DNA from: a virus
Taxonomy: Duplodnaviria; Caudoviricetes
DNA length: 64,000 nt
Strand: one strand, 5' to 3'
Virus record (IMG/VR): IMGVR_UViG_3300025913_000019
Shown: in pieces, positions 4,681-43,639 of the stretch
Layout of the letters: the number at the start of each line of letters is the position of its first letter
Position numbering within the stretch: position 1 is the first letter of the stretch
Notes under the pieces: generated by a model
Told to the model about the DNA's origin: nothing
What the model saw: only the letters and a program-made list of their open reading frames with translations
Databases searched by the model: none
Program-made: the position numbers and the translations under genes

Positions 4681-5004
4681 TCAGAACCTCTCGAACCACG
4701 CGGGGTCCGGTTCCGATTCTTTCGGCCAGTCCGGGATCGGATGCAGGCCGCGCAATTCGTGGGCCGTCGTGTCCGGCAGGAAGTTGATCTGACCATCGGT
4801 CACGAACGAGTGACAGACGGTCTCTGCCTTGCGACGCGAACTCGTGACCAGCAGAGACGGCTGGAACGTCGGCTTCGTCGTGTCACCGTTGAAGGTCCAC
4901 GGGTTCGGGTGCGGCTCGACGGCAATGACGTGACTGGTGCGACAGCCGGGACACCAGAGGTAGACGCGCGTCGGGTTCCTGATCTCACGCCTGAGGATGC
5001 TCAC
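4681..5004 (-). CDS. DUF6527-like Cys/His protein
   Basis: CPGC..H, WTFNG...PTFQPS, CHSFVTDGQI.FL.D..H pattern. Confidence 0.7.
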   Translation of the reverse strand: MSILRREIRNPTRVYLWCPGCRTSHVIAVEPHPNPWTFNGDTTKPTFQPSLLVTSSRRKAETVCHSFVTDGQINFLPDTTAHELRGLHPIPDWPKESEPDPAWFERF

Positions 5005-5468
5005 TTATTGTCCTCGGACAACTGGTTGAGCTTGCGCAGCGCCAGGCTGAACTTCATCCACCAGGCGGTGTAGGCTTCGACCTCCTTGTCCACCCGCTGC
5101 GCGAATCCTTCCGCGTAGTTGATGATCTTGCCGATGTCAGCGATCTCCTTCTGGTCGATGCCGTACACCACATCTTCCATGTGCTCGCTGAAGCTCAGCT
5201 CCGGCTTGGCGCTGAAGTCCAGGTCGAGAGACTTGGAACCCTTGCCCTTTTCGTTGAGACTGATGTCGAACGTGACGACTCGGTTCTCGCCGAACGTGAC
5301 TTCGCACGAACAGGCCAGGTCACCCCAGGCATCGACCTCGATCTTGACCTTCAGACCGGAGGACGCGAAGGCCTGCTCGACGGCCGCCTTCGCGTCCTCG
5401 GCAGAACCCTGCGGCTTGGCCTCGAGTCGCTGCATTTCCTGCAGCCGGGCCTTCGCTTGGATGTCCAT
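5001..5468 (-). CDS. Putative internal virion protein with LxAKxRL signal
   Basis: Starts MDIQAKARLQ; AAGGAG SD. Confidence 0.7.
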   Translation of the reverse strand: MDIQAKARLQEMQRLEAKPQGSAEDAKAAVEQAFASSGLKVKIEVDAWGDLACSCEVTFGENRVVTFDISLNEKGKGSKSLDLDFSAKPELSFSEHMEDVVYGIDQKEIADIGKIINYAEGFAQRVDKEVEAYTAWWMKFSLALRKLNQLSEDNK

Positions 5469-5478
5469 CTCGTTCTCC

Positions 5479-5778
5479 TTAGAGCGCGACGTAGAGGATC
5501 GATTCCTTCTGGAACCAGTGCTCGATCTCCAGGTACTCGCCGTTGCCGTCCGGGTAGTACTGGCGTCCCTTGTGCGGGACCTTTTCCAGAGCCTCGGGCT
5601 TGAACGGCGCCTCGAAGTAGATCGCGGCTTCGTCGGTGCCGAGACGCTCGACGCCCTTGAGGCCGACGCCCAGCTTCTGCGCCATCGACTGCGCGAGGTG
5701 CTTGAGGTGATCCGGCATGTCGTCGGCCATGATCTTGAAAGCCGAGAGTCGCGCCTTCGCTTGCAGTTGGATTTCCAT
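5479..5778 (-). CDS. Putative internal virion protein with LxAKxRL signal
   Basis: Starts MEIQLQAKARLSA at 5778; GGAG SD. Confidence 0.7.
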   Translation of the reverse strand: MEIQLQAKARLSAFKIMADDMPDHLKHLAQSMAQKLGVGLKGVERLGTDEAAIYFEAPFKPEALEKVPHKGRQYYPDGNGEYLEIEHWFQKESILYVAL

Positions 5779-5803
5779 TCTGTTCTCCGCTTCGGATGTG
5801 GAA

Positions 5804-5824
5804 GCGGGGCCGCTAGGGCCCCGC
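5804..5824 (-). other. Intergenic hairpin with CUAGC loop
   Basis: GCGGGGCC-GCTAG-GGCCCCGC. Confidence 0.6.
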
Positions 5825-5832
5825 ATCGGAGA

Positions 5833-6670: not shown

Positions 6671-6925
6671 TCAGATCGGGAGCTGACGGTCGCGGTCGGC
6701 CTTGTACGCGTCGGCGCAGTGCGTCCTGGAGAAGGCCAGGCCGTTGATGATGTACATCATGAACCCGAACTTCTTCTTGTCGCGGTGCTTGCGGAACGCC
6801 ACCGACGACATCGTCTCCCACGGGTTGCCGCGGAGGAACAGGGCGTTGGCCAGGTAGTCGAGGCAGATGAAGACGCCGAACAGGTAGTGCTTGAGAGCCA
6901 GCCAGATGGCCTTGAGCTTGGTCAC
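6671..6925 (-). CDS. Small hypothetical phage protein with N-terminal hydrophobic segment
   Basis: GTG overlapping upstream stop, AAGGAG SD; DYLANAL..GNPWETMSS...HC pattern. Confidence 0.6.
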   Translation of the reverse strand: MTKLKAIWLALKHYLFGVFICLDYLANALFLRGNPWETMSSVAFRKHRDKKKFGFMMYIINGLAFSRTHCADAYKADRDRQLPI

Positions 6926-7902
6926 TTGTGTGCTCCTTGATGCTTGGGGAGGATGAGCTTGTGCTCGCGCCCGAATTTCGTACCCGGGTATTTCTTCATG
7001 TAGGCCTTGCGATCCTCGGCAGGCAGCGAGTGGAACCACTTGTGGGTCCGACCGTGCGGCTCCTTCGGATCGATGACGAGCGCGCCGTGCAGCGGCTGCG
7101 GCATGTGCTCGTAGTTGATCTTGAGGTGCAGCTTCTTTGCCGCCGCGTAGAAGAGCGCGACCATGAGGGATGCAGCGTCGCCCGAGTGGGAGCCGAGGAA
7201 GTGCAGCAGTCCTTCCACATGAGAGGCGCCGTAGGCCGTGATGCCGAGACCACCGGACGCGAGACCGAACAGCAGGACACTGATGTCCTTCAGGCCCTGC
7301 TTGGAGGCGAACATGTCGGCCAGGCTGTAGTCACCCTTGACGCAGTTGATGACCGCGTCGACGATGCCCAGGTCGTAGTCTGCGTCACCGGTCGACGACG
7401 CGTGAAGGAATCCCCACACGAGGAAACCTGCGACTGCAAGACCCGTGACCTTGGTCAGCACCGGGTGGCGATGGATCACTTCGTCCAGCTTCTTCACGCG
7501 CTCGTGGACATCGAGATGCTGCATCAACTTCGAGGAACCGAAGGTCTCGATCAGATCATCGAAGGCCGCGAACAACGCGGTCGCCGGAAGTGCCATCGCC
7601 TTCTTGACGGCCTTGAGTAGCTTGGCGATCGAGAAGCCCACACCCTTCAGGAGTCGGAACACCGACTTCTCTTTGAAGGCCTGGACGATGGAGTCCCAGC
7701 CGATGTGAGCCGACTCGGCCAGCAGTGCTCCGACTTCCTTCAGCTCGGACCACAGCTTCTTCAGTGCACCCGGCACCTTGAACTCGAAGGCTTGCAGCTC
7801 GTGCGGATCACGCGCCAGGGCTTCGACCACTGTCGCGTACTTCTCATAGGTGACGTCGGCCGCCTCCATGAGCATGAGGCGCGTCTCAGCTTCGAGTTTC
7901 AT
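6922..7902 (-). CDS. Membrane-associated protein with variant signal (MKLEAETRL)
   Basis: 326 aa from ATG 7902; hydrophobic segments VTGLAVAGFLVWGFL, ISVLLFGLASGGLGITAY, AASLMVALFYAA. Confidence 0.7.
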   Translation of the reverse strand: MKLEAETRLMLMEAADVTYEKYATVVEALARDPHELQAFEFKVPGALKKLWSELKEVGALLAESAHIGWDSIVQAFKEKSVFRLLKGVGFSIAKLLKAVKKAMALPATALFAAFDDLIETFGSSKLMQHLDVHERVKKLDEVIHRHPVLTKVTGLAVAGFLVWGFLHASSTGDADYDLGIVDAVINCVKGDYSLADMFASKQGLKDISVLLFGLASGGLGITAYGASHVEGLLHFLGSHSGDAASLMVALFYAAAKKLHLKINYEHMPQPLHGALVIDPKEPHGRTHKWFHSLPAEDRKAYMKKYPGTKFGREHKLILPKHQGAHK

Positions 7903-7903
7903 C

Positions 7904-8755
7904 TCAGGCATTCCACCAGTTGGGTTCGACCATGAAAAAGGAGACGATGGCTTCGGGCGGCACGGGCACGGTGATGAACTTGAACTCCGGCTCATCGACC
8001 AGCTCGTCCTGGTACAGCACCGCGCCGGGGACCTTCGCGAGATCGATCGTGACCGCACGATACTGCGCGTTGACAGCACGAAGTTTCGACTCATCGAACT
8101 CGCCCCACTCCTCCAGCGACCAGCGCTTGGACAGCAGCATGCCCATGACCTGGGACACGACTTCGGGCTTCTTCGACATCGTCAGGAAGATCGAGGGCTT
8201 GCCGTACTTGAGGCTGCCCTTCCACAGGCCCTGGCCTTCTTTCGTCAGCTTCAGGCCTTCGCGCTCGATCTTGCGCACGTTCTTGCCTTCGGTGAAGTGG
8301 TAAGCCAGCTGTTGCTTGGCGGCTTTCAGCTGCTTCGGGACCGGGAACGTGCCGGCGATCGTCACCAGCTTGTGAATCACGTTCGGCTGCTCGAGCTCGA
8401 AGTGGATGCCCGTCTTCTTCAGGATCGCGAGGCAACGTCGAACCAGCTCGTTCGCAGCCTCCACACCGTCCCAGCTCTTGGTGCGAGTGAAGAGCCGCAG
8501 CGCTTCGTTCGTGATCTCGCGTGGCGTCTCGACGAAGAGCTGTGCCACGCCATGCTGGACCTCACCGATGGAGATGGCCCACGAGCTGGACTCGAAGTCG
8601 AAGTACAGGATGGTGGGGTAGATCCCGGCGCTGTGCTGCGGCTGCACCTTGAGCCCCACCTTGTGGAGCGCTTCAGCGACCCGCGTGCGGATCACATCGG
8701 TCAGCTCGGACGTTGGCGCGAACGCCAACAGACGGGACTTGGCTTGCAGCTTCAT
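7904..8755 (-). CDS. Putative internal virion protein with LxAKxRL signal
   Basis: Starts MKLQAKSRLLA. Confidence 0.75.
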   Translation of the reverse strand: MKLQAKSRLLAFAPTSELTDVIRTRVAEALHKVGLKVQPQHSAGIYPTILYFDFESSSWAISIGEVQHGVAQLFVETPREITNEALRLFTRTKSWDGVEAANELVRRCLAILKKTGIHFELEQPNVIHKLVTIAGTFPVPKQLKAAKQQLAYHFTEGKNVRKIEREGLKLTKEGQGLWKGSLKYGKPSIFLTMSKKPEVVSQVMGMLLSKRWSLEEWGEFDESKLRAVNAQYRAVTIDLAKVPGAVLYQDELVDEPEFKFITVPVPPEAIVSFFMVEPNWWNA

Positions 8756-9460: not shown

Positions 9461-9826
9461 TTAAAGGGTCTGATAGTCTCCGAGATCGGGCATGGCTTGC
9501 AGAGGACCCGTCGACAGAAGTCGATGACCAGCACCGAGACCCATGCCCATCGAGATGGGGCCGGGTTCGCTGTGCATGATCTCGGCGTCACTCTGCTTGA
9601 TGAGGTTCTGGTTCTCATCATCCGGCTGATACCCGGTGTTACCCGGGTTGTCGGCATCATCCATGCCCTTGCCGATCAACTCATCGTCGACTTCGTCTTC
9701 ACGCGGCAACTGGTGGTCGGCCTCCGCTTCGTCCATGTAGGTCGACGGAGGCCGATCAGTTGTGTTGACGACGGAGGCGAGGATGGAGATCAGCGAGCTC
9801 AGTCTGGCCTTCGCCTGCAGCTTCAT
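9461..9826 (-). CDS. Acidic putative internal virion protein with LxAKxRL signal
   Basis: Starts MKLQAKARLS at 9826 (TGATG overlap). Confidence 0.7.
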   Translation of the reverse strand: MKLQAKARLSSLISILASVVNTTDRPPSTYMDEAEADHQLPREDEVDDELIGKGMDDADNPGNTGYQPDDENQNLIKQSDAEIMHSEPGPISMGMGLGAGHRLLSTGPLQAMPDLGDYQTL

Positions 9827-10149
9827 CACAGTTCCTCGTGGAGGTGGACCTTGCCGCCGATGTGCTCCATGACCCAGCCGGGCTCGCCTTTCTTCGACCA
9901 CGTGATCTTGGACCCGTGGTCCGCGATCTTGTAGCCGAGGTGGGTGAACACCAGCTTGTTCAGGTCGCGGGCGCCGATCTTGAACATGCCATCGGAGAGA
10001 CGGCCGTTGCTCTTAATCTCCTGGCGCCCGTTGTGCGTGAGCTCGAAGTCAGCGGTCTCGAACGTGTCCTTCAGGACTTCCAGCAGCCGCGGGCCCAGGG
10101 TCTTGAGGTCCTGCAACGCCAGCAGCCGCGACTTCGCGTGCAACTTCAT
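9826..10149 (-). CDS. Putative internal virion protein with LxAKxRL signal
   Basis: Starts MKLHAKSRLLA at 10149. Confidence 0.7.
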   Translation of the reverse strand: MKLHAKSRLLALQDLKTLGPRLLEVLKDTFETADFELTHNGRQEIKSNGRLSDGMFKIGARDLNKLVFTHLGYKIADHGSKITWSKKGEPGWVMEHIGGKVHLHEEL

Positions 10150-14397: not shown

Positions 14398-15471
14398 TTA
14401 CAGGCGGTAGCCCTTCGCGAAGGAGCGGCTGTTCGCCACCGACACGGCCAGGGCCTCGTGCAGCACGAAGCCGCGACCCGGGATCTTCTCGATCGAGATG
14501 TCGATCGGGGTCGATTGCAGGCCGCCGCGATCCGAGTACGCGCCGTGGTTCAGGGCGTCCGAGATCACGAAGAACTCGCCTTGGCCCAGGACCTTGTGCT
14601 CCGGATGACGGAACGCGTCCGACGTGACGGTCATGCCGTACATCGTGCCCAGCTCGCCGGTGAGCAGGAGCTCGTGACGGGCCACCGGGTCGATGGCGGT
14701 GAAGAAGTCGGAGTTGCCGACCACGTCCTGCCACAGGTCCGTCGCCATCAGCAGGTGCGCGCCCTTCAGACCCCAGCGGGTCACGTTGGTCACGACCGTC
14801 ATCAGGCTGTACGGCGTCAGCTGGCCCGACACGATGGTCAGGTTGTTGTCGACGCCGACCAGGCTCTGCAGCTGGTTGTAGTAGAGGCGGTCTTCCGCCA
14901 CCATCGTGGCCTCGACGGCCTCGATGTACTTCTCCTGCAGCACGTCGCCGCTGGACTGGTTCAGTTCCACCTGGGGGATGAACGGACGGGCCACGACCGT
15001 CAGTTCCGGCGGGGTGAACCACTTGTCGCGGGTGATCTGCGACTCGACCTTGGTCGGGCTGGTGGACCAGACCGCGGTCACGTTCTTGTTGCGCAGCGGG
15101 AAGCGCGGGATCGAGCCCATCTCGACGTCGATCTTGGCCAGGTACTTGCGCATGAAGCCCTGACGGTTCGCCGTGATGTACAGCGACTCGCTGATCTTCT
15201 CGCCGAGCACGCGGTGGGCCTCGGGGCTGTTGAACGCGGCACGGACCAGGTCCTTCGACTCGGAAGCCGTGATCGCGAGCATGTTGCCGGCCGACGCTGC
15301 GGTCAGGAACTTGCGCTGCTGCTCGAGCAGGTCGCGCTTCGAACTGGCGTTCAGCTCGCCCTTGCCGGAGCCTTGGTAGCGGCCGACGAAGGATTCGCCG
15401 CCGTCGACCGGGCGGAGGTCGGTGGCGAGCACGGGCGACTTGGCCGCGCGGATGTTCACTTGGGTACGCAT
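14398..15471 (-). CDS. Major capsid protein
   Basis: 357 aa; order protease-scaffold-decoration-capsid; HK97-like GELGTMYGMTV and C-terminal beta pattern. Confidence 0.75.
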   Translation of the reverse strand: MRTQVNIRAAKSPVLATDLRPVDGGESFVGRYQGSGKGELNASSKRDLLEQQRKFLTAASAGNMLAITASESKDLVRAAFNSPEAHRVLGEKISESLYITANRQGFMRKYLAKIDVEMGSIPRFPLRNKNVTAVWSTSPTKVESQITRDKWFTPPELTVVARPFIPQVELNQSSGDVLQEKYIEAVEATMVAEDRLYYNQLQSLVGVDNNLTIVSGQLTPYSLMTVVTNVTRWGLKGAHLLMATDLWQDVVGNSDFFTAIDPVARHELLLTGELGTMYGMTVTSDAFRHPEHKVLGQGEFFVISDALNHGAYSDRGGLQSTPIDISIEKIPGRGFVLHEALAVSVANSRSFAKGYRL

Positions 15472-17751: not shown

Positions 17752-17781
17752 GAGCACTCCTTGGGTCAAAGTTGATGAGTA

Positions 17782-17817
17782 GGTTAGCCAAAGCGTACTA
17801 GTCCGCTCAGGCTAACC
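17782..17817 (-). other. Leader hairpin of scaffold/capsid operon with ACUAGU in loop
   Basis: GGTTAGCC/GGCTAACC outer stem, AGCG/CGCT inner stem, TACTAGTC loop. Confidence 0.55.
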
Positions 17818-18514: not shown

Positions 18515-18778
18515 TTATTGGTTCGTCTTCTGCGCCTTGACGGCGCTGGCGCTCGAGCCCGCGTTCTTCAGGCGGGCAACGGCGCCCACCTTCATCGGGT
18601 TCGGAGCTTCCGCGTTGGCAGCGGGTTCGGCATTCAGACCGACAGCTCGCGAGCCACCGTTGCCGAGCCTGGCAACCGGTTGCGTCTGCGGTGCGGTGTT
18701 CTCGCTCGTGTGCAGCGAGGTCGAGGCTCCGAGTTCGGAACCGAGGCGGCTCTTGGCCTTCAGCTTGATGTCGTTCAT
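18515..18778 (-). CDS. Small protein with LxAKxRL signal
   Basis: Starts MNDIKLKAKSRLG; AAGGA SD. Confidence 0.65.
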   Translation of the reverse strand: MNDIKLKAKSRLGSELGASTSLHTSENTAPQTQPVARLGNGGSRAVGLNAEPAANAEAPNPMKVGAVARLKNAGSSASAVKAQKTNQ

Positions 18779-18787: not shown

Positions 18788-19156
18788 TCAGCCGTAGTAG
18801 GCGCTCTCTGCGTTCTTCATCAGCATGAAGCCCAGGTTGTAGGCTTCTTCCCAGGTCAGGGCGATGTCCTTGCCCGCGATCTTGAGCTCGATGTTCGGCA
18901 CGCCGTCCATGAGGTTGCCGCCATACTTCTGGTCCATCTCGCGCAGCTTCTTCGAGTCCGGAGTCTCGTCCTCACTGTCGATCATGACGCGCACCTGCGC
19001 GTGACCGCCTTCCTTGGTCTTGAGACCGTAGGTGCCGGTCGACGGACTTCCCGTGAACGTCTTCTTGAACGTCTTGTCCCACGGGATGTTGGTCGCGGTC
19101 ACGACACGTGCGATGGCTGCGGCGACGAGCCGCGACTTTGCTTGCAGTTTGGTCAT
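18788..19156 (-). CDS. Putative internal virion protein with LxAKxRL signal
   Basis: Starts MTKLQAKSRLVAAA; directly after protease. Confidence 0.7.
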   Translation of the reverse strand: MTKLQAKSRLVAAAIARVVTATNIPWDKTFKKTFTGSPSTGTYGLKTKEGGHAQVRVMIDSEDETPDSKKLREMDQKYGGNLMDGVPNIELKIAGKDIALTWEEAYNLGFMLMKNAESAYYG

Positions 19157-21186: not shown

Positions 21187-21200
21187 ATGAAATTGCGGTC
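21187..21200 (-). promoter_or_regulatory. Candidate late promoter GACCGCAATTTCAT(G)
   Basis: Exact match to 6656-6669. Confidence 0.6.
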
Positions 21201-27834: not shown

Positions 27835-28034
27835 TTGCTGTGATCCCAGTGTTTGGAGGTCTCGGCGAACTCAGCCATCTTTGCGGGATGGCCGCCGGCC
27901 GCCTTGCCTTTCGCGATGTCCGCTTCGGTGATGGGTTCGTCCTCGCTCTTGCCCAGCCACTTGTGGAAGTCGCCGTGCTTGATGGGGCCGATCTTGGCCA
28001 TGAGCCTGGACTTGGCTTTGAGCTGGAGGATCAT
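27831..28034 (-). CDS. Small protein with LxAKxRL signal
   Basis: Starts MILQLKAKSRLMA at 28034; GAGG SD. Confidence 0.65.
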   Translation of the reverse strand: MILQLKAKSRLMAKIGPIKHGDFHKWLGKSEDEPITEADIAKGKAAGGHPAKMAEFAETSKHWDHSK

Positions 28035-34279: not shown

Positions 34280-35764
34280 TCAGAAGTACGGGAGCCCACG
34301 GTATGCTCCGTAGGCACCGCCGTACAGGCTCGCGGGACTGATGGTGATGCCCACCGCTCCCATGGCGCCACGCTGCAGGGCGCCGAAGTTGCCGTCTCCA
34401 TTGGGGCCCGATCCATCCCCGTTTTGGTTCCCCTTGATGATGAGGTTCTGCTTGAACGGCTTGAGCTCGTTGTCCAGTGCCGACTGGATCTTCGAGGCCA
34501 TGTTGTCGAGGTACTGCGTGCGATCCACATCGAGACTGATGTTGGCGCCGCTGAAGTTGAATGCCTTCTCACCCTCCAGGAGATACTGCGCTTCGAGCGC
34601 GTACTTCTCTGCGCACAGCAGCCAGTACTCGCGCACCGGCCCCATGGCGTTCGTCATCGTCAGGCTGGAGAAGACGCCCGCGTAGCCGTTGAAGAAGTCC
34701 ATGCCGCGGCGCAGCCACTTCATGATCTCGGTCGACGGGAACAGGGAGTCCGGCGTGCCATACAGCGTCGTGCGTGCCTTGTTGATCTTCGCCTTCACAT
34801 CCTCGATGGCTTGGATCATCGAGTCGGTGACGATCCACAGCTCGGTGGCCTGACGGAAGGTCTGCGCCGGCACGTTCCAGAACTTCCAGTTGATCTGATA
34901 CGGCACGCAGCTGGGCGGGAGACTCGTCGTGTCGATGGTGGCGCTCACGCAGTAGCCGCCCGCGATCTTCTCCGGGTTGAGGACCGGCATCGAAGCCAGC
35001 ACCTGACCGCCTTGACGCAGCTCCACCACGTAGTTCTGGTACAGGTCCTTGGTCGCGAACAGGACGGTCGCGGGATCACCCTGCATCTCGATCGAAGGCT
35101 GGCAACCCAGCTGCACATCGATCAGACCTTCGACCGTGATGGCTTCGAACTGGTAGATGTTCTGCTCGCCGACTCGCAGCGTATAGCGCAGCTGGTAAGG
35201 CTTGCCGACCGACGGCGGGATCGACGACGGCACGTTGATGACCGAGCGAGCGATCACCGTGTTGGCAACGCCCGTAGCCATGATGCGCATGTCGAAGGCA
35301 TTGCCCGAGGCGTAGACGGTGCCCGTCTCGTCCAGGATGTCCCACAGCACGTAACCACCGCTGGGATCGAACGTGTTGGGGAACGGGATGGCAGCGACCG
35401 CGACCGCGCTCTTGCCCGCCTGGATCGAACCCACGAGGTCCTGGTACGAGTCGGGGTCTGCGTTCGGGTACGGATCGAACGAATCGGAGATGACGTTGAG
35501 CGCCACCGTGAGCACGAACGTGCGCAGGTTGGTCACGAACGTCAGCGGCCAGCCGTAGCTCACGCCAGTCGAGCCACCGGTGGCCGTGAATGCGACAGGC
35601 AGCGCGGTGCCGCTGGTCACGGTCAGGGTCGGCGCACCCGTGTCCGCAGGCGTGACGGCACCGACCGAGATCGATGTCACGGTCTCACCTGCTTGCAGCG
35701 CCGGCGTGAACTGGTTCGAGATGTCGGACCCGTCCTTGGTGAAGACGTAGAGCTTTTGCATCAT
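34280..35764 (-). CDS. Virion protein, possibly neck/head-tail adaptor
   Basis: 494 aa; beta-rich N-terminal domains, helical C-terminal domain; product inferred. Confidence 0.4.
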   Translation of the reverse strand: MMQKLYVFTKDGSDISNQFTPALQAGETVTSISVGAVTPADTGAPTLTVTSGTALPVAFTATGGSTGVSYGWPLTFVTNLRTFVLTVALNVISDSFDPYPNADPDSYQDLVGSIQAGKSAVAVAAIPFPNTFDPSGGYVLWDILDETGTVYASGNAFDMRIMATGVANTVIARSVINVPSSIPPSVGKPYQLRYTLRVGEQNIYQFEAITVEGLIDVQLGCQPSIEMQGDPATVLFATKDLYQNYVVELRQGGQVLASMPVLNPEKIAGGYCVSATIDTTSLPPSCVPYQINWKFWNVPAQTFRQATELWIVTDSMIQAIEDVKAKINKARTTLYGTPDSLFPSTEIMKWLRRGMDFFNGYAGVFSSLTMTNAMGPVREYWLLCAEKYALEAQYLLEGEKAFNFSGANISLDVDRTQYLDNMASKIQSALDNELKPFKQNLIIKGNQNGDGSGPNGDGNFGALQRGAMGAVGITISPASLYGGAYGAYRGLPYF

Positions 35765-36771
35765 CAGCCTTTGGGTACGTGATAGAGACGGGGAAGCCCC
35801 TGCTCATTGAACTTGGCGAGCGACGGCCACGTGATCTGCACGGGAGCGCCCGTGTAGTGGAGCCGGAACTTGAACGCGTAGGTCTTGCCCGCCTTGTCGA
35901 GTTCGCCCTTGATGGCACGACCGTTCTTTTCCAGGATCGCAGGGCCCGGGACGAAGCCGTCCATCTTGTGCAACGACTTGAAGTACGAGGCGTCGACACG
36001 CGGACCATACTGATCCGTGTTCTTCTCTTCCTCCTGTGTGCGCTGCAGGCCGGTCTTGTACTCGTAGTCGTCGGTGGGATCGAAGCGTCGGGGGTCGAGG
36101 CCAACGTGCACCATCCAACGCTGCCAATCCGGCCCGTGGCCCTGCGCTGTGCGGTCGTGTACGTGATCCACCGTCCACACCGCCTGGTGGCACATTTCGT
36201 GGAGAAAAACCTCCAGAAAGAAGGGCAAACGGGCGTTCCACATGATCGTATTGAACCAGAGGAATTTGGTCCGAAAACCGGCTTCTCCGACGTGCAAACC
36301 GCGTGTCGATGGGCGACTGCCGATGCCCGGAACCTTTGCGTCCGAGACCAATTTCGGCAGCTTCATGCGGCCCTGGAACTTGTGCTCGTTGTAGTACTCC
36401 CACAGCGCCTTCATGAAGGCTTGCCGCTTGGAATCCGAGACCTGCGCCTTCTGGTACATGGCCTCGAGTTCCGGGGTCACACCGCTCGACTTGGACAGGT
36501 GGGTGTCAGTCGCCTTCTTCTCGGTGCGCTTGCCGGCGTCGATGAAACGCACGACGTTGTTGCTGGGGCTGACGCCGAGCTTGCCCACATCCGGGATGTC
36601 GTAGACGGCGACCGTACCCTTGGCCGCCATCGTCGGCTTGACCGAGATGACCTTCGGGTTGAAGAAGCGGAACTTGAAGGTGTAGGTCGCTGCTTCCTCG
36701 TCAGCCTTGATGAGGCTCAGCTCCGTGAAGCTGAGCCGCGTCAGCAGCGACTTGACTTCGGTGATGTTCAT
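35764..36771 (-). CDS. SprT-like zinc metalloprotease domain protein
   Basis: FLHEMCH (HExxH) followed by HGPDWQRWM; ATG 36771 overlaps upstream TGA. Confidence 0.8.
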   Translation of the reverse strand: MNITEVKSLLTRLSFTELSLIKADEEAATYTFKFRFFNPKVISVKPTMAAKGTVAVYDIPDVGKLGVSPSNNVVRFIDAGKRTEKKATDTHLSKSSGVTPELEAMYQKAQVSDSKRQAFMKALWEYYNEHKFQGRMKLPKLVSDAKVPGIGSRPSTRGLHVGEAGFRTKFLWFNTIMWNARLPFFLEVFLHEMCHQAVWTVDHVHDRTAQGHGPDWQRWMVHVGLDPRRFDPTDDYEYKTGLQRTQEEEKNTDQYGPRVDASYFKSLHKMDGFVPGPAILEKNGRAIKGELDKAGKTYAFKFRLHYTGAPVQITWPSLAKFNEQGLPRLYHVPKG

Positions 36772-37730
36772 TCCTGGGCTCCGTTCTTGCGAGTCCACTC
36801 CGACATCGCGTGCTCGAGCCTCGGGTGCATGGGCTCGGGCAGCTCGTCAGCGCCGCACCACTTGTAGTCTGTGTGCTCTTCGTTGAGCGTGGGCTCGAAC
36901 TCGTCGGGCACGACAGCCATATGGTTGTGGAAGATGAAGTTGGGCTGGACGTCGCGATGCATGAACAGCAGTTCGATGGGCTCATCGTAGCCGCACTCTT
37001 CCGAGAGCTCGCGCTTCGTGCCCTGATCGATGGTCTCGCCATCCTCGATGCCGCCGCCGGGAACACACCAGGTGCCAGGGCAGTCGCCAGTCTCCGAACG
37101 CTTGATGAACAGGAAGCGACCCGTGGCCTGGCTGTAGAGCAGGACGCCGCCGCCGAAGCCGGTCTCGCGGCCAGCCTGCGTCCGTCGCTTGTAGGCGTCG
37201 AGCAGCACCTGCTGCGAGATCGCGGCCTTGACGACCTTGGCACCCGCAGCTTTGAGGCTCGCGAGCTTGGCTTCTGCGCGTTCGATTGCCTGCTCGGTCG
37301 ACAAGGCCATGACGTCGAAGCTGACGATGTTCATCGTGCCGTCTTCTTCGTTGTAGCTGTCTGCGAGCTGAACGGTGAACTCGCGCTCGGTATCAGCGGT
37401 CAGCTTGCGCACCAGCTCTTCACCGACCGGGCGATCCATCGAGCCGATGTCCACGGACTCGGGATCGAAGTTGTGCCGACGCTCCGGCATCCGATCCAGC
37501 TTGTCGACCGCGACCGCGAGCTCGTGATCGGCGCTCATGCCATCGTGACGCGGGACCACGCGGTCGAGGTCTTCATCGGAGGCAGCGAGCTCGCGACCGC
37601 GGGCTTCCGACCAGGCAAGACCCGAGTACGGCAGGCCGTTGCGGCGTTCGTGCAGCCGCTGCAGAGCCATATCGATGTCGATCTTGGCCGCGAGCCTTGT
37701 CGCGGCGCGAAGTTCTTTGGGTTTGGTCAT
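36768..37730 (-). CDS. NUDIX hydrolase with variant signal (ELRAATRLAA)
   Basis: PGGGIEDGETIDQGTKRELSEECG Nudix box; LNEEHTDYKW. Confidence 0.85.
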   Translation of the reverse strand: MTKPKELRAATRLAAKIDIDMALQRLHERRNGLPYSGLAWSEARGRELAASDEDLDRVVPRHDGMSADHELAVAVDKLDRMPERRHNFDPESVDIGSMDRPVGEELVRKLTADTEREFTVQLADSYNEEDGTMNIVSFDVMALSTEQAIERAEAKLASLKAAGAKVVKAAISQQVLLDAYKRRTQAGRETGFGGGVLLYSQATGRFLFIKRSETGDCPGTWCVPGGGIEDGETIDQGTKRELSEECGYDEPIELLFMHRDVQPNFIFHNHMAVVPDEFEPTLNEEHTDYKWCGADELPEPMHPRLEHAMSEWTRKNGAQE

Positions 37731-38264: not shown

Positions 38265-39458
38265 TCAGTCGCCTTCGTTGATGATGTTGCAGAGCTTGCG
38301 CACCTTCGTCGGGCTCAGCTTGTACTTGTCTTCCATGAACTCGAGGTCGATCGGATGGACGCCCTCGGAGTGGTCCATGTTCGAGAACGTGAAGGTCAGC
38401 ACGTTCTGGTCGCGCCGGACGCGAATCTGCGTGCCCTTCTTGCGCTTCACGATCGCCTTGAGTTCGAGGAAGATTTGGGCCTGAGCCTCGGCCACCTTCG
38501 CAGGGTCGTTCGTGTTGAGCGTGAAGATCAGCTCGTCGCGTGCGGCATCGACCGACTCGATGGCCTCGGCTGCCGAGAAGGCTTCACGGCGCAGGCCACC
38601 GGCCGGCTCGCGAATCTGCATCGAGACCGGGAGGTTGCCGATCTGGCTGGAGAAGCCTTCGAGGCTCATCTGCTTGGCGATGGCCTGCGCGGCCGTCGTC
38701 AGGCTGGTGATGGTGTGCCCGCCTTCGAGCTTGCCCGGCGGCACGAAGTCGTGGTCGATGAAGAGCTCGACGTTGCCGCCGACCGTCCACTTGACCGCGA
38801 TGTAGAGGTGGGGCACGTCCTTGCCCTCGTCGTTCACCGCGTTCTGGAGGATGATGTAGCCGCAGAAGACCAGCTGGTCTTCCTTGTCGAGCGCGGCGTA
38901 CGTCATCGTCTGCAGCGACTCGCACTCGATGTACTTGTTGTTCTCGATTTCTTCGGCCAGCGCCTTGACGAAGTTCTTGTACTGCTTCGGTGCGTGTCCT
39001 TCAGCGATCTTGGCCAGCGCCTGGAACAGGGTCTTGAGCGAGTCCTCGATCTGCGTCTTGAGCTTCTGGAAGCCGCCCAGGACTTCCTGGAACTGCTTCG
39101 AGTTCTCGCCCCGCATGTTCATCTTGAACTCGTTCTCCGCGTTCACGAGGAACTTGTAGCGCTCGCTGAGCCGCTCGGTCAGCGCGTAGTGCTGCTTCAG
39201 CTCGTCGGCGTTCGGGACCTCGACCTCGGGGAAGTCGATGTTCATGGTGCGGCGACGCTTCTTGCCGTCACCGCTGATGTCGAGCGTCTTCACGTCGAGC
39301 GCGATGACCGGAGAGGCCTTGACGACGCGTGCGATCTGGCTGAGTCCGCGGTCGACCATCTGACGGTCGAGGTCGAACTCCTTGGTCTGCTCTTGCAGGA
39401 AGCGCTTGACCTCTTCGAGGCTGCGGAACTTCGTGGTCTGATTGGAGGGCATGTTCAT
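38265..39458 (-). CDS. Hypothetical, probably virion protein
   Basis: 397 aa, coiled-coil-rich N-half. Confidence 0.7.
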   Translation of the reverse strand: MNMPSNQTTKFRSLEEVKRFLQEQTKEFDLDRQMVDRGLSQIARVVKASPVIALDVKTLDISGDGKKRRRTMNIDFPEVEVPNADELKQHYALTERLSERYKFLVNAENEFKMNMRGENSKQFQEVLGGFQKLKTQIEDSLKTLFQALAKIAEGHAPKQYKNFVKALAEEIENNKYIECESLQTMTYAALDKEDQLVFCGYIILQNAVNDEGKDVPHLYIAVKWTVGGNVELFIDHDFVPPGKLEGGHTITSLTTAAQAIAKQMSLEGFSSQIGNLPVSMQIREPAGGLRREAFSAAEAIESVDAARDELIFTLNTNDPAKVAEAQAQIFLELKAIVKRKKGTQIRVRRDQNVLTFTFSNMDHSEGVHPIDLEFMEDKYKLSPTKVRKLCNIINEGD

Positions 39459-40441
39459 TCCTTGTCGTCAGGTTCGGGATACACGACGTCGCGTGTGTAG
39501 GTTCGTACTTGACCGTCGGAGCCGTATCGGTCGTTGTAGGCTTGGGCGCTGTCGGGCCCGATGTTGAGCATCAGGTTGTCGCCGTGTTCGCAGCTGAGGC
39601 GGGCCATGTCCTGACCGACCTTCATCATCTCAGGCGGGATGCCCTTGACCTGCATCCGATCGGAACCATCGCCGTCGACGAACATGCCGACGACGACGCT
39701 GTGACCGGCGGTGCCTTCCCATTCGACAGCTGCCAGGAAGTGAGCCATCGCACGGTACTGCTCCTCGGATGCGAACCCGAGCTTGAGGTCGAGGTGGAAC
39801 GGCAGGTCATCGATGTGCTTCCGAGCCTCGATCTGCTCGCGCTGCGCTTCGAGCTCGATCCTGGCGCTCATCTTCTCGGCTTCGACCATCAGGGGATGGA
39901 TGCCTCCTGCGAGCAGCTCGACCTCACGGGCGCACATGGCGCACGCCAGACGAGAAGAAGGGCCGCCGCACTTAGTGCGAAGGCCGTCGGGACGAGGAAC
40001 CACGTGACCATGGACTTGGAGCGGATCGACATACTTGGCGATGAAGTCGTGGACGTTGATGGTGTACAGCGTCTGAAGATCGGCGTGCTCGCCGTTCGAC
40101 AACGTGCAGGTGTAGATCCCGTCGTGGTAACGCCCGTGATACGAGTCGGCCACGGGCTGACCATTGACACCGACGGTGAAGGTGTGGATCGGATGGCCGG
40201 GCTCACCGACGATCACGATCTCGTGGTTGCGCTCGAGCTCATGAGCGAGACTGCGAATCACGGTCGCCCTGCAGTCGTTGCCCTTGACCGGCATCAGGCC
40301 AGCGCCCATCTGCCCCATGCGCTTGAGGAATGCTTCGACGCTGACGTTGCCACCGTCGCCCACCTGCTTGGCTTCAACAGCCAGGAGCGCTTCGATGAGT
40401 TCGAGCCTTGCGGCCGCGTGTAGCTGCTTGACTTTGGTCAT
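39455..40441 (-). CDS. Multidomain protein with variant signal (QLHAAARL)
   Basis: Starts MTKVKQLHAAARLE; internal CGG...CAMC. Confidence 0.7.
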   Translation of the reverse strand: MTKVKQLHAAARLELIEALLAVEAKQVGDGGNVSVEAFLKRMGQMGAGLMPVKGNDCRATVIRSLAHELERNHEIVIVGEPGHPIHTFTVGVNGQPVADSYHGRYHDGIYTCTLSNGEHADLQTLYTINVHDFIAKYVDPLQVHGHVVPRPDGLRTKCGGPSSRLACAMCAREVELLAGGIHPLMVEAEKMSARIELEAQREQIEARKHIDDLPFHLDLKLGFASEEQYRAMAHFLAAVEWEGTAGHSVVVGMFVDGDGSDRMQVKGIPPEMMKVGQDMARLSCEHGDNLMLNIGPDSAQAYNDRYGSDGQVRTYTRDVVYPEPDDKE

Positions 40442-41085
40442 CGCATCAGCTCCGCGATGATGGCGTTCATCTCCGCCAGCTGGTTCTTGCAGTCGACCAG
40501 CGCATCATGATCGCCCGGCAGCCGAGGGACGTCGCGGTCGAACTTGCGTCCGGCCTTCTGCCGCGCCACTGCCTTGATGGCGTTCATGTCGAAGTACTCG
40601 TAGTGGAACGTGCCGTCGACCGGCGTGTCGCCATCGTAGTGGCTGAGATCGATCACGTTCTTCATGTAGAGGAACAGGATGTCGGTGGGCACGCAGTCGC
40701 CGCACGGACTGACCTTGCCTTTCCACGTTCCGAGCCACTGCTCGAGCAACGACCGCGCCATCTTGTAGTCGATCTTCGACTCGTTGGCCTTGCGGTAGAT
40801 CTCGGTCAGGTGCTTGCGCGCGAAGTCCGAGGTCGGCGCCAGGTCGGTGTGGATGAACAGGTTCAGCGTCGACTCGTCGTCATCGAAGTAATCGGGTCGG
40901 GCGTACGCCTTGCCGTTCCATTCGAGCTTCAGAGCCGTGAGCTGGATGATGTCGTCCTTCTTCGGATCGAGGCCGGTCATCTCGCAGTCGAGCATGACCA
41001 GCCGCTCCGGCATGAACAGCGGACTCGGGTCCATCGGTTGTTCCGCGCTCAGGAGGCGCGCCTTGGCTTTCAGTTGGAGTTCCAT
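40438..41085 (-). CDS. DEDDh exonuclease, oligoribonuclease-like, with LxAKxRL signal
   Basis: Starts MELQLKAKARLLSA; LDCEMTGLD (ExoI), PCGDCV.TD (ExoII), HDALVDC (ExoIII). Confidence 0.85.
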   Translation of the reverse strand: MELQLKAKARLLSAEQPMDPSPLFMPERLVMLDCEMTGLDPKKDDIIQLTALKLEWNGKAYARPDYFDDDESTLNLFIHTDLAPTSDFARKHLTEIYRKANESKIDYKMARSLLEQWLGTWKGKVSPCGDCVPTDILFLYMKNVIDLSHYDGDTPVDGTFHYEYFDMNAIKAVARQKAGRKFDRDVPRLPGDHDALVDCKNQLAEMNAIIAELMR

Positions 41086-41099
41086 CTTGTTCTCTCTGG

Positions 41100-42356
41100 T
41101 CAGAACGTGAAGCTGCTGCCACCGTCGGTGATGCCGCTGATCGTGTTCGCCTTCGACGGCGTCGCAGCGTTGGTCGTCTGCTCCTTGACCATGACGTGAC
41201 CACGGACTGGGAGGATGCGCCAGAGCTCGGCCGGCTGCGCGACTCGCACCTGGACCTCTTGACCGAGGAAGTTGCGATCGCGCGTCGTCCACGGGTTGAC
41301 TGTACCGACGATCAGCAGCCGCCCCGATTGCGACTCGGCGATGATGTCCAGGGTCTGGACTTCCGGGCACTCCGGGCTCATGAGGATCTGGAACGGCTCG
41401 GTCTTCTCGAACACCGAGATGTCCTGGCTCTTGCCCTTCTTCGGGAACTCGAAGTACACCGGCTCGGGGTTGAGACCGGCCTGGGCCTCGAAGTGCGTGA
41501 CCGGGTCCTGGCTGTTGATCGTGATGGTGTGAGGCCGACCGTCAAACCAGTTGAGGACACGCTTGTTCATCGTGTCGGTTCCGTCGATCAGGATCTGCGC
41601 CCTGACCATGCGGTCGCCGTTCATGACGCGGAAGCAGTCGACGACGGCAGCACCGAGAGGCAGGACCATGACGAACGTGAAGGTACCGGGCCGTAGGGCC
41701 AGCGGGCTCGTCGTCAGGTCGAGAGTCGACGTGGTCTGCATCCGGGTCGCATCCACGACCTGACGCCAGCCCCGGAAAGGCGAGAAGCCGCCGATGTACC
41801 CCGATCCGAAGCACAGTGGGCAGCTCACGTCGGTGAGACCGATCGATCCGTAGTCGAAGTCGCGCAGCAGCGCGTCGATGTCGGGACTGAACATGCCAGT
41901 CTCGGTCATCGTCGGTTCGTCGGTCACCAGGTTGTTTGTTCCGTCGTCGGGACCCGCGCGCCGCAGGTCACCGAGGAACTGATTGGTCGCGTTGTTCGGG
42001 CTCGTCTCGTGGTCGTGGAAGTTGTCGATGTCGTCGAACTCGGAATCCGGCGACAGCGGGTTGTAGGCGCCGACGCCGAACTTGGATTCACCGGTCAGCA
42101 CGCGATTGATCGTGCCTGTGTCGGCCTTACCATCGGGATTCAACTTCAGGCCCACCGCCTTCTCCGCACCCTTGCAGGTGCAGGCGATGCCCTGGCTCAG
42201 TCGCGAGTAGAGGATGGCCTTGAACCCCTGGACACGAAACGCAGCGATCATGCGCTGCTGTTGCATCGATGCCACGTGCTCGACCATCGTCTTGGCGACA
42301 TCCGACGCCCGCATGTTCGCAGGCGTCAGATTGGAACGGTTGTCCATCAGCGGCAC
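41100..42356 (-). CDS. Virion protein, possibly head completion/neck
   Basis: GTG 42356 with AAGGAGG SD; CTC and CPLCFGSGYIGG motifs; product inferred. Confidence 0.45.
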   Translation of the reverse strand: MPLMDNRSNLTPANMRASDVAKTMVEHVASMQQQRMIAAFRVQGFKAILYSRLSQGIACTCKGAEKAVGLKLNPDGKADTGTINRVLTGESKFGVGAYNPLSPDSEFDDIDNFHDHETSPNNATNQFLGDLRRAGPDDGTNNLVTDEPTMTETGMFSPDIDALLRDFDYGSIGLTDVSCPLCFGSGYIGGFSPFRGWRQVVDATRMQTTSTLDLTTSPLALRPGTFTFVMVLPLGAAVVDCFRVMNGDRMVRAQILIDGTDTMNKRVLNWFDGRPHTITINSQDPVTHFEAQAGLNPEPVYFEFPKKGKSQDISVFEKTEPFQILMSPECPEVQTLDIIAESQSGRLLIVGTVNPWTTRDRNFLGQEVQVRVAQPAELWRILPVRGHVMVKEQTTNAATPSKANTISGITDGGSSFTF

Positions 42357-42367
42357 GTTGGCCTCCT

Positions 42368-43249
42368 TCAGTTGCTGACCGCGGACTCGAAGTCGTCCCA
42401 CACCTTCGAGACGTAGGTCTTGACCAGATCAGGGTCCACGCCCTTCATCAGCGCCTTGACCCGCGGGTCCTTCATCACCAGTTCGGTGACCTTGGAGACC
42501 GGAGTCGGGCTCTTCAGGTTGTAGATGGCGATCCTTGTGATTGCGTTCTTGAGGTCGGCGCTCAGCGACGCAACGATCAGGCTCATGTTGAGCTTCGTCG
42601 GTGGGCCGATCTCGACGCAGCGGATGATCTTGAACTTCGGGTACTTGTGACCCTTCTCCTTGCGGAAGACGCGCTTGGCCTGCTCGGCATCGACGCAGTG
42701 GTCGATCTTGATGCGGGCCGACGCGAGGTCGCCGCCCTGGCGCGGATCTTCGTAGCTGATGTAGAGCTCGAAAATCTTGTCGCTGGCGGCGCTGGCTGTT
42801 GTCTGCACGTGCGAGGCCACGAGACCCTTGCCCTTGCATTCCTTTACGACGTAGGCCTTCGCGTCGTACAGGTCCTGGTGGGTTGCACCCGTCGACATCG
42901 ACCCGAAGTACTTCTTCGGCTTGCCCGGAATGTCGACCTCGAACACGTCGACGTTCTTGCGACCTTGCTGCTGGACGCGGATCACGGCAGCCATCGTGCC
43001 GTTCTCGTCGTAGTAGTCGATGCGACCGAAGCCTTCTTCCCAGTGGCCTTCGGTGGCCAGCAGGCGGCTCTTGGCCTGGAGCTCGAGCGACGCATGGCTC
43101 ATCTTCTTGAAGATGTTGGTGACGTAACCGTAGTCCTTGGCGTGGCCTTGCTTGCCAGCCGCTTCCTTGGCGTCGTCCCACTTCTTCTCGAGTTCGGGCA
43201 CGGAGCCCTTGCCTTCGCGGCTCAGTTTCTTGATGTACGGTGTCGGCAT
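42368..43249 (-). CDS. Multidomain protein with internal LELQAKSRLLA
   Basis: Signal at residues 55-65 (43055-43087) after a small basic helical domain. Confidence 0.7.
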   Translation of the reverse strand: MPTPYIKKLSREGKGSVPELEKKWDDAKEAAGKQGHAKDYGYVTNIFKKMSHASLELQAKSRLLATEGHWEEGFGRIDYYDENGTMAAVIRVQQQGRKNVDVFEVDIPGKPKKYFGSMSTGATHQDLYDAKAYVVKECKGKGLVASHVQTTASAASDKIFELYISYEDPRQGGDLASARIKIDHCVDAEQAKRVFRKEKGHKYPKFKIIRCVEIGPPTKLNMSLIVASLSADLKNAITRIAIYNLKSPTPVSKVTELVMKDPRVKALMKGVDPDLVKTYVSKVWDDFESAVSN

Positions 43250-43261
43250 GTTCAGCTCACA

Positions 43262-43639
43262 TCAGTCGTAGTACGGAAGAGTAGACTGCTTAGCCTTCTT
43301 CGGGCCAGTGATCCAGACGTAACCTTTTCCGTTGATGGTCACGGTAGCGACGACCGCTCCTTGGTACAGGAGTCGCACCGCTTTCGGGTCAGTCGCGTAC
43401 TCGAGATTGCGTTCAACCTTCCAGCCGTTGGACTCGAAGGTCTTCACAACGTCCTCGATCTTGCTCGGATCGAGCTGACAGGTCATCTGCTGGAAGTCTT
43501 CGTAGGGATTGGAATTTCCCCACTGGCCGTGAGCTTTGGCTCCCCAGCGCTTCACCAGCAGATTGCGGATCAGTGTCGCAGTAGGCTCCGACACTTTTGC
43601 TGCTGTCATTTGCAGACGGGATTTGGCTTGGAGTTTCAT
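43262..43639 (-). CDS. Putative internal virion protein with LxAKxRL signal
   Basis: Starts MKLQAKSRLQMTAA at 43639; GAGGA SD. Confidence 0.7.
   Translation of the reverse strand: MKLQAKSRLQMTAAKVSEPTATLIRNLLVKRWGAKAHGQWGNSNPYEDFQQMTCQLDPSKIEDVVKTFESNGWKVERNLEYATDPKAVRLLYQGAVVATVTINGKGYVWITGPKKAKQSTLPYYD

Follow-up and report, generated by a model that had tools for sequence, protein, structure and literature searches.

The genome of an uncultivated phiRSL1-like phage (IMGVR_UViG_3300025913_000019; 139,364 bp, 182 predicted proteins) raises a simple question: why should 15 unrelated proteins, whose genes lie in the neighbourhood of those for head assembly, carry a common peptide of 11-13 residues, and what might this peptide do? 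The original prediction, made from the 64,000-nucleotide stretch of this genome that we refer to as the window, had listed 15 peptides of the LxAKxRL type and proposed that they form a capsid-targeting signal. All 15 are indeed present at the positions given, each on the minus strand, and we found no prior description of the tag in the literature; the prediction knew of none either.

Written as [LI]-x-A-[KAE]-x-R-L, the motif is matched 15 times in a regular-expression scan of the whole 139,364-bp genome, all in the three coding-strand frames and none elsewhere. The whole-proteome scan suggested with the prediction bears it out, since 0.03 matches are expected when the residues of the proteome are shuffled (2000 rounds, at most 2 matches) and 0.3 when the codons of the DNA are. 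Furthermore, 14 copies lie within the first 20 residues of their proteins, against 0.002 expected; these start 1-5 residues past the start methionine (ATG), and a Shine-Dalgarno-like purine run lies 5-10 nt 5' of most of these ATGs. The placement at the N-terminus that had been claimed thus holds for 14 copies but is not strict, the copy in Carrier 2 being truly internal. With a position-specific scoring matrix the 15 tags score at least 22, and every other position in the 182 predicted proteins scores 6.7 or less.

The codons of the tag vary freely: serine is written TCC, TCG or AGC, leucine CTC, CTG, CTA, CTT or TTG, and arginine with all six of its codons. The bodies of the carriers have no mutual similarity (BLASTP among the 15 carriers, best E 0.25). 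Selection on the tag therefore acts at the level of the peptide, as had been proposed. Sec and Tat signal peptides were considered and rejected on inspection, the tags being amphipathic and without a hydrophobic stretch (criterion: a core of at least 10 residues after a basic N-region). The carriers, with their tags, are as follows.

43262..43639, minus strand: Carrier 1, 125 aa, MKLQAKSRLQMTAA
42368..43249, minus strand: Carrier 2, 293 aa, internal tag LELQAKSRLLATE at 43061-43081
40438..41085, minus strand: Carrier 3, 215 aa, MELQLKAKARLLSAE, with a DEDD exonuclease domain (Pfam RNase_T, E 2.7e-6)
39455..40441, minus strand: Carrier 4, 328 aa, MTKVKQLHAAARL
36768..37730, minus strand: Carrier 5, 320 aa, MTKPKELRAATRL, with a C-terminal NUDIX domain (Pfam NUDIX, E 1.8e-17)
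27831..28034, minus strand: Carrier 6, 67 aa, MILQLKAKSRLMAK; tagged orthologues in L003 and L007
27082..27834, minus strand: Carrier 7, 250 aa, MNLELQAKQRLLASS; very acidic (pI 4.05), low complexity
18788..19156, minus strand: Carrier 8, 122 aa, MTKLQAKSRLVAAA; directly downstream of the protease
18515..18778, minus strand: Carrier 9, 87 aa, MNDIKLKAKSRLGSE; basic, low complexity
9826..10149, minus strand: Carrier 10, 107 aa, MKLHAKSRLLALQ; tagged orthologue in G2
9461..9826, minus strand: Carrier 11, 121 aa, MKLQAKARLSSL; acidic, disordered
7904..8755, minus strand: Carrier 12, 283 aa, MKLQAKSRLLAFA; lineage-specific
6922..7902, minus strand: Carrier 13, 326 aa, MKLEAETRLMLME; C-terminal WFxxLxxxxKxYxxxYPxTKF module
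5479..5778, minus strand: Carrier 14, 99 aa, MEIQLQAKARLSAF
5001..5468, minus strand: Carrier 15, 155 aa, MDIQAKARLQEM

Several carriers are hyper-acidic or disordered, a tendency of prohead core proteins. No Pfam or PHROG family matched Carrier 1, and no protein family matched Carrier 4 (Pfam and PHROG searches among others). Carrier 12 has a single homologue (77%) in 5.8 billion proteins; its match to the NCBIfam RNA 2'-phosphotransferase is weak (E 0.15) and those to PTS_2-RNA, DUF952 and DarT/PARP are all below significance, so that there are weak hints of a possible ADP-ribosyltransferase (ART) fold. In Carrier 2 a conserved N-terminal domain of about 50 aa (KxxREGKGSxxxLEKKW) precedes the internal tag, a layout also found in G2, phiRSL1 ORF112 and BcepSauron gp098, the last a protein of 71 aa with the tag at its very end.

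The suggested scan of related phages reveals that the tag is not confined to this genome. Dialects of it (LQAKxRLLA, LNAAxRLLA, IxAAxxRLxATEV and NFAxRLLA) head from 5 to about 25 proteins per genome in phiRSL1, BcepSauron and 13 IMG/VR relatives: at least 20-25 tags in G3 (218,861 bp, complete), at least 13 in G2, at least nine in phiRSL1, at least four in BcepSauron and several each in L009, L015 and L016, while L012 and L013 use the dialect NFAxR[IL]L. The head region of PaBG has no tag. Orthologues retain the tag at 35-75% body identity: that of Carrier 3 in G2 is tagged and 66% identical, those of Carrier 7 are tagged in G2, L003, L007 and L008, that of Carrier 8 is tagged in G2, that of Carrier 11 begins MKLQARSRLKADE in G2, and those of Carrier 13 begin MQLQARMRLLATE in G2 and MKLEAVSRLHATD in L010. 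Lineage-specific genes carry it too, and it is also found internally, C-terminally and in repeats. NUDIX proteins are tagged in all lineages (among them those of G2 and G3, phiRSL1 ORF109 and BcepSauron gp099), and a homospermidine-synthase-like enzyme is tagged in G3 and untagged in phiRSL1. The phiRSL1 carriers are not annotated as structural in RefSeq. The tag is a family trait of the phiRSL1-like phages, modular and linked to the head module.

This link is close in the present genome, where all 15 tags lie on the coding (minus) strand within 38 kb and all 15 carriers fall among 46 consecutive genes out of 182 (Fisher p 1.5e-10). Besides the carriers, two of which lie directly downstream of the head maturation protease, this stretch includes the following genes.

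34280..35764, minus strand: portal or head-tail connector-like protein, 494 aa (phrog_17327, E 1.1e-62)
21199..26220, minus strand: SNF2-type helicase, untagged, inside the head module, 1673 aa (Pfam SNF2-rel_dom, E 3.4e-16)
19161..19949, minus strand: head maturation protease, 262 aa (phrog_18299, E 4.8e-77)
16225..17751, minus strand: scaffold-like protein, 508 aa, its N-half disordered and hyper-acidic, its C-half helical and conserved
14398..15471, minus strand: major capsid protein (MCP), 357 aa (phrog_2522, E 2.3e-87)

The SNF2-type helicase is kept at the same position in phiRSL1, BcepSauron, Motura and BCSR5. The baseplate and fibre block and the opposite-strand replication blocks of this genome contain no carrier. 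The prediction had placed all carriers in virion-type blocks and none among the replication or metabolism genes. Of this, the strong association with the head module stands; the carriers are not purely virion-type, as a NUDIX hydrolase and an RNase T-type exonuclease are tagged here and a homospermidine-synthase-like enzyme in a relative. The denial of tagged replication or metabolism genes is further weakened by five carriers that lie between the type IB topoisomerase gene and the portal-like gene, amid kinase-like and SprT-like genes.

We favour the reading, at a probability of roughly one half, that the tag is an amphipathic docking helix which targets cargo to the prohead, by analogy with the capsid-targeting sequence (CTS) of T4. 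It would be a portable protein-protein docking tag, in which 1-5 residues are followed by phi-x-A-[A/K]-x-R-L-[L]-A-[S/T], and would form about three turns of helix with an invariant arginine. Through one head-internal partner, which may be the scaffold-like protein or else the capsid shell at its inner face, it may recruit unrelated proteins into the assembling prohead, the cargo comprising acidic or disordered core proteins, small uncharacterised proteins and enzymes (NUDIX, DEDD exonuclease, ART-like). The scaffold-like protein is a candidate receptor; its gene sits between those of the protease and the MCP, as that of T4 gp22 appears to do. That the tag also occurs internally and C-terminally is easier to reconcile with a docking peptide than with an N-degron or a translation signal.

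A rival reading is that the motif is a general one for docking on some other phage or host assembly than the capsid, such as a factory for replication or packaging, a site at the membrane or an enzyme of the host, where diverse late proteins and enzymes would gather without encapsidation. The tagged NUDIX, exonuclease and homospermidine-synthase-like enzymes look metabolic rather than structural, five carriers keep the company of topoisomerase, kinase-like and SprT-like genes, and a tag that works internally and in repeats is what such a hub might read. We nevertheless consider this unlikely, for the carriers are tightly clustered with head genes, the protease gene directly precedes a tagged gene in most relatives, and the same-strand replication enzymes that we recognise (DNA polymerase, primase, SbcD, thyA, DHFR and RNR) are without a tag. 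As capsid cargo, the NUDIX and homospermidine-synthase-like enzymes are odd, and this counts against packaging, as do the RefSeq annotation of the phiRSL1 carriers and the untagged head region of PaBG.

The head maturation protease is the candidate for an enzyme that removes the tag. Its residues H122/H125, S183 and H210, invariant in 11 relatives and with assemblin-like spacing, are putatively catalytic. The protease has no Pfam or PDB sequence match; its AlphaFold2 model has a pLDDT of 58, and the best ten Foldseek matches are all herpesvirus assemblins, at non-significant E values of 0.25-1. Herpesvirus assemblins cut (V/L)-x-A-S between the alanine and the serine, and to our knowledge no prohead protease of a phage has been described that cuts after alanine. 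Among 77 tags, the second residue after the R-L pair is alanine in 65%, the third is serine or threonine in 49% and the fourth is glutamate in 22%. The N-terminal 60 or so residues of the MCP, to which PDB entry 6wkk aligns from residue 69, hold three conserved phi-x-A-[ST] sites (VLA-T, LNA-S and TAA-S) at residues 14-17, 40-43 (LNAS) and 57-60; A42 is invariant and S43 is found in at least 90% of sequences. The tag HMM does not detect the MCP N-termini, so the likeness between MCP and tag is without statistical support. The virion proteins of the related phage PaBG are proteolytically processed, its MCP losing about 20% of its mass, and its virion contains a 221-kDa helicase-like protein (PMC7412058).

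Tags that end in L-x-A followed by serine or threonine would probably be clipped by this protease, which would leave free cargo able to exit the capsid with the DNA. Since the canonical L-x-A-[ST] ending is found in only two of the 15 window tags, cleavage may not be general. It is tentatively, and with some doubt, that we put forward the fuller proposal of a clip-off address helix that loads a fast-changing set of 15-25 proteins per genome, delivered with the DNA, the tag being removed by an Ala-cutting, assemblin-like protease. This set would include a NUDIX hydrolase, an oligoribonuclease-like exonuclease, an ART-like protein and polyamine enzymes.

Were the tag no more than a propeptide, or an element by which the protease recognises proteins to be activated or removed at a set time, it would have no part in targeting, and the carriers would come to the prohead, if they do, in some other way; the enrichment of the L-x-A-[S/T] ending and the similar sites in the MCP N-terminus would be accounted for. 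This seems quite improbable, as the putative cut comes only after the most conserved part, L-x-A-[AK]-x-R-L, many window tags are without a canonical site, and a protease confined to the prohead meets just those substrates that are already inside. Still harder to credit is a tag for stability (degron) or for recognition by a chaperone, with a host or phage reader, that gives the carriers a common lifetime; the usual place at the extreme N-terminus would suit it, but the tag is conserved also within proteins, at their C-termini and as repeats, and confinement to the head module would have no reason. A signal in the nucleic acid (translation initiation or an RNA operator) or a recombination boundary, with the peptide as by-product, can be virtually dismissed despite the location at gene starts, since synonymous codons are free at every conserved residue, the flanks are unrelated, and the dialects of the relatives differ in amino acids while keeping position-specific chemistry.

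Amongst known systems, the best available reading of the docking tag is the analogy to the CTS of the T4 internal proteins, reportedly the subject of work by Mullaney and Black in 1996. We know of no likeness in sequence between the T4 CTS and this tag, and the claim is thus one of analogy only. In both, an N-terminal peptide of about 10-13 residues is common to unrelated proteins, some of them enzymes, in a myovirus with a prohead serine protease, and the genes are found within the head module or close to it. Unlike the T4 CTS, the present tag is also internal and in repeats, has far more carriers (15 here and about 25 in a relative), is known from sequence alone and has a putative cut at L-x-A-S/T or A-T-E, where that of T4 is at L/I-x-E. 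The T4 CTS is found on IPI, IPII, IPIII and Alt and is removed by the prohead protease gp21 (PMC3012670, PMC9958956).

The phiKZ-like phages are large as well; they use one prohead protease for many head-internal proteins and eject packaged enzymes into the host, as may be the case here. Their propeptides (SPN3US gp245, phiKZ gp175), cut after S/A/G-x-E (PMC5694885, PMC7411985, PMC10052503), are however long and mutually dissimilar, with the cut motif alone in common, whereas here one short, putative helix recurs almost letter for letter. The end of the tag, R-L-x-A-S/T, and the three MCP sites resemble the maturation (M) and release (R) sites of herpesvirus assemblins, (V/L/I)-x-A-S with the cut before the serine; the protease has invariant His, Ser and His residues, and its nearest, non-significant fold matches (E about 0.25) are assemblins. 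The assemblin sites lie in the scaffold, the putative sites here in cargo tags. The antirestriction cargo Dar of phage P1, with its DarB N-terminal packaging signal, and the MuF-domain polymorphic toxins and polyvalent proteins are head-borne enzymes injected with DNA, as is proposed for the cargo here, and a large SNF2-type helicase in the head module is a further resemblance. They rely, however, on domains that are folded or on extended N-terminal regions, and the SNF2 protein of the present phage is untagged. MuF or polyvalent-protein delivery was itself rejected, as no Phage_Mu_F or other folded head-binding Pfam family was found in the 15 window carriers or 32 carriers of relatives. Encapsulin cargo-loading peptides, too, are short and dock varied cargo on the inner face of an HK97-fold shell; they differ in being usually C-terminal, of other sequence and uncleaved, and binding to the shell is here a candidate mode.

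Even if the partner lies outside the capsid, a short linear motif on 15-25 unrelated phage proteins defines a hub interaction. Should the tag prove to be an address for the capsid, one could list from sequence alone which proteins are packaged, and probably injected, across a whole clade of jumbo and near-jumbo phages, among them phiRSL1, Sarumanvirus and many uncultivated relatives. Such a list would draw attention to effectors made in advance (NUDIX, exonuclease, ART-like), which may serve to take over the host early or to counter its defences. As with the T4 CTS, foreign proteins could moreover be loaded into these capsids by a handle of 12 residues, and an Ala-specific, assemblin-like phage prohead protease would tighten the link between the maturation of phages and that of herpesviruses.

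The shared peptide is a real feature of this DNA and is maintained at the level of the protein. All of the peptides listed in the original prediction were found, on the minus strand and where it had placed them, and its pattern, searched in six frames of the window, gives 15 matches, confined to the three minus-strand frames. The window corresponds to bases 19212-83211 (reverse strand) of one virus record of 139,364 bp, the whole of which has no occurrence of the motif beyond these 15. In 2000 residue shuffles of the proteome the mean number of matches is 0.03 and the maximum 2, against 15 observed; 14 tags lie within the first 20 residues of their proteins, against 0.002 in the residue-shuffled proteome, and codon-block shuffling of the DNA yields 0.3 matches. 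With a position matrix derived from 40 tags, the tagged proteins (carriers 1-15, numbered from 43639 down to 5001) score 22 or more, and no other position in the 182 predicted proteins scores above 6.7. Codons vary at the conserved residues (all six for Arg, TCN and AGC for Ser, five for Leu), the DNA flanking the tags is unrelated between copies, and the bodies of the proteins are also unrelated (BLASTP best E 0.25 in a 15-sequence database). The counts against shuffles, the gap in matrix scores, the codon variety and the unrelated bodies together confirm both the observation and the proposed selection at the peptide level.

The window copy and the genome copy differ at eight single bases (12276, 22100, 23165, 25786, 33672, 53694, 59410 and 62510); at 23165 an in-frame stop in the genome copy divides the 1673-aa SNF2 gene, which is intact in the window copy. 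Since the protein cluster of carrier 12 also occurs on a contig of 212,062 bp, the 139-kb record may be incomplete, and 15 tags the minimum.

The phage is distantly related to Ralstonia phage phiRSL1, whose tail sheath is 54% identical, and to the Burkholderia phages BcepSauron and BcepSaruman, BCSR5 and Achromobacter phage Motura; megablast of the window against GenBank phages gave no match. The gene order around the carriers is as follows.

Gene order on the window minus strand, in transcription order
SbcD, DNA polymerase, primase, thymidylate synthase and DHFR, all without the tag
43647-45272, minus: type IB topoisomerase, eukaryotic-type
Carriers 1 and 2 (carrier 2, 42368-43249), a 415-aa protein, carrier 3 (RNase_T exonuclease), carrier 4
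A 395-aa protein; 37727-38263, kinase-like protein (fragment, phrog_15752); carrier 5 (NUDIX)
35764-36771, minus: SprT-like metalloprotease; then 34280-35764, portal/connector-like protein
Glycosyltransferase-like protein, both ribonucleotide reductase subunits, HNH endonuclease
Carriers 6 and 7; 21199-26220, 1673-aa SNF2 helicase; two small proteins
19161-19949, minus: head maturation protease (phrog_18299, E 4.8e-77), directly before carriers 8 and 9
16225-17751, minus: 508-aa protein, N-terminal half hyper-acidic and disordered, C-terminal half helical
Virion structural protein; 14398-15471, major capsid protein (MCP; phrog_2522)
Tail sheath, tail tube
Carriers 10 and 11, a 230-aa protein, carriers 12 (7904-8755) and 13 (6922-7902)
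84-aa and 250-aa proteins, carriers 14 and 15

All 15 carriers fall within 46 consecutive genes of the 182 (Fisher p 1.5e-10); the opposite-strand replication blocks and the baseplate and fibre block contain none. The accompanying claim that carriers avoid metabolism genes holds in part: no recognised enzyme of replication or nucleotide synthesis has the tag, but two of the carriers are enzymes. Judged by position and composition, the 508-aa protein is putatively scaffold-like; its N-terminal ~230 residues are extremely acidic, of low complexity and variable among relatives, only the C-terminal half being conserved, and the PHROG label 'ATPase' given to it looks spurious. Between carrier 9 and this gene lie 745 nt (17770-18514) with no convincing ORF, in an otherwise tightly packed block; the corresponding gap in phiRSL1 is ~100 nt, and an Rfam search that included this stretch found no match. 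The SprT-like, kinase-like and topoisomerase IB genes are interleaved with the upstream carrier group. The SNF2-type helicase gene lies inside the head module, a position kept across phiRSL1-like phages, and a 221-kDa helicase-like protein of the PaBG virion (PMC7412058) is a candidate homologue of its product.

Relatives were compared through 15 IMG/VR loci linked via the protease at 49-78% identity, most of which have N-terminal tags. These are written in dialects: LQAKxRL[LQ]A[ST] in the closer relatives, LNAAxRLLA in three loci (L009, L011 and L015), MNFAxR[IL]L[AS] in two others (L012 and L013), and in phiRSL1 an 8-residue variant, IxAAxxRLxATEV. Two IMG/VR relatives, G2 (22 against a control of 3) and G3 (32 against 3-7), show enrichment of a degenerate DNA pattern, confined to the coding strand; G2 has at least 13 tagged genes, and G3, which is complete at 218,861 bp, has at least 20-25, grouped around the head module. 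Tagged genes of phiRSL1 are ORF109 (NUDIX), 111, 112 (internal), 120, 123, 124, 126 (with an extended start), 127 and 133, and those of BcepSauron gp099 (MutT), gp091, gp077 and gp075. Orthologues keep the tag at 35-75% body identity, and an enzyme resembling saccharopine dehydrogenase and homospermidine synthase is tagged in G3 (34377-35792; locus L018, 14380-15792) and untagged in phiRSL1 (ORF110), so that the tag has been gained or lost on it. The exact start MKLQAKxRL is found in IMG/VR in this clade only, the remaining matches being due to chance, and of 1596 N-termini in these sources an HMM of the tag picks out ~72, set off by a distinct gap in score. The tag is absent from the head region of PaBG, whose virion proteome is therefore uninformative on carriers.

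The consensus of 77 instances runs Met, 0-5 residues and L-x-A-[A/K]-x-R-L-[L]-A-[S/T]-[E], where the invariance of A and R-L is built into the search pattern; counting from R-L, Ala is found at +2 in 65%, Ser/Thr at +3 in 49% and Glu at +4 in 22%. A helical wheel parts these residues into one face with L0, A2, A/K3, L6 and L7 and another with x1, x4, R5 and T9, from which we infer that the tag may form a three-turn amphipathic helix with a key arginine.

A single tag, that of carrier 2, is internal (43081-43061). It is genuine rather than a mis-called start: a conserved domain of ~50 residues, KxxREGKGSxxxLEKKW..., stands ahead of it here, in G2 and in ORF112 of phiRSL1; BcepSauron has this domain as a free 71-residue protein with the tag at its end. 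In the window the domain (43102-43249) has the pattern MPxxxIKKxSREGKGSVxxLEKKWDxA...; it could serve as an adaptor or compete for the tag's partner. A second conserved module of ~22 residues, W[WF]xxLxxxxKxxYxxxHPxSK[YF], which matches no Pfam family, often stands directly after the tag in relatives. It is present in G3, BcepSauron (L035, 22983-24713), L015 and this window, where it forms the C-terminus of carrier 13 (6970-7038); BcepSauron gp075 has three copies, one of them after an internal tag-like AVARLLVTA.

The proposal that we favour, at about even odds (a probability of roughly 0.5), is that the tag is a prohead address with optional clipping. The tag would be a docking peptide read by one partner, which fits because it is modular, linked to the head module and tolerant of internal positions. 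The most economical partner would be the capsid interior, because most relatives have a tagged gene immediately after the protease, several carriers share an acidic or disordered character with prohead core proteins, and the tag's best-conserved extension, L-x-A-S/T, recurs three times in the MCP N-terminus. The conserved N-terminal ~60 residues of the MCP hold three phi-x-A-[ST] sites (VLA-T, LNA-S and TAA-S), with A42 of LNA-S invariant and S43 present in at least 90% of sequences; the alignment with the nearest solved capsid protein (6wkk) begins at MCP residue 69. Maturation in the related phage PaBG removes ~20% of the mass of the MCP, and further virion proteins undergo processing (PMC7412058). 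The MCP N-terminus was also considered as a diverged tag, but the tag HMM recovers no MCP, so this likeness was dropped as evidence and the shared phi-x-A-[ST] sites were kept.

The protease has no PDB sequence match and no Pfam match. Its invariant residues are H122/H125, S183 and H210, and herpesvirus assemblins take the top Foldseek ranks, at non-significant scores, for its AF2 model (pLDDT 58). Assemblins have a His-Ser-His triad and cut (V/L)-x-A-S between the alanine and the serine. Since the fold match is non-significant and the canonical site is present in just 2 of the 15 window tags, cleavage of the tag by the protease is hypothetical and may concern a subset only.

That the partner is some hub other than the capsid is a serious rival. 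NUDIX and polyamine enzymes are unexpected cargo and count against the capsid reading, which is weakened further by the RefSeq entries for the phiRSL1 carriers, where no structural flag is given, and by the failure of the tag HMM on the MCP. [quoted passage not shown] The interpretation first offered is partly supported.

Functionally, the closest known system to the proposed prohead address is the T4 capsid-targeting sequence. We claim no homology: the T4 sequence has no evident likeness to the tag, and the likely cut site differs. The propeptides of phiKZ and SPN3US are long and dissimilar save for the cut motif, and encapsulin loading peptides are C-terminal and uncleaved, both unlike the tag; MuF and polyvalent systems use folded domains, of which none was found on the carriers here. 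No description of the tag came to light in open-access papers on phiRSL1, Sarumanvirus, Matilda, PaBG and jumbo-phage comparative genomics.

The tag has no model in NCBIfam, Pfam or PHROGs, and most carriers match no family in these collections. That the cargo may be injected is suggested purely by parallels, namely T4 Alt and the T4 internal proteins, P1 Dar and the ejection proteins of phiKZ. Carrier 12 has one homologue only in 5.8 billion proteins, yet a perfect tag. Its residues ~145-283 give sub-threshold hints of an ADP-ribosyltransferase type (RNA 2'-phosphotransferase, E 0.15; Atlas rows for PTS_2-RNA, DUF952 and DarT/PARP); these hints are the sole basis for such a fold, the alignment being too shallow to fold. 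If real, a fold of this type in carrier 12 would be a parallel to T4 Alt.
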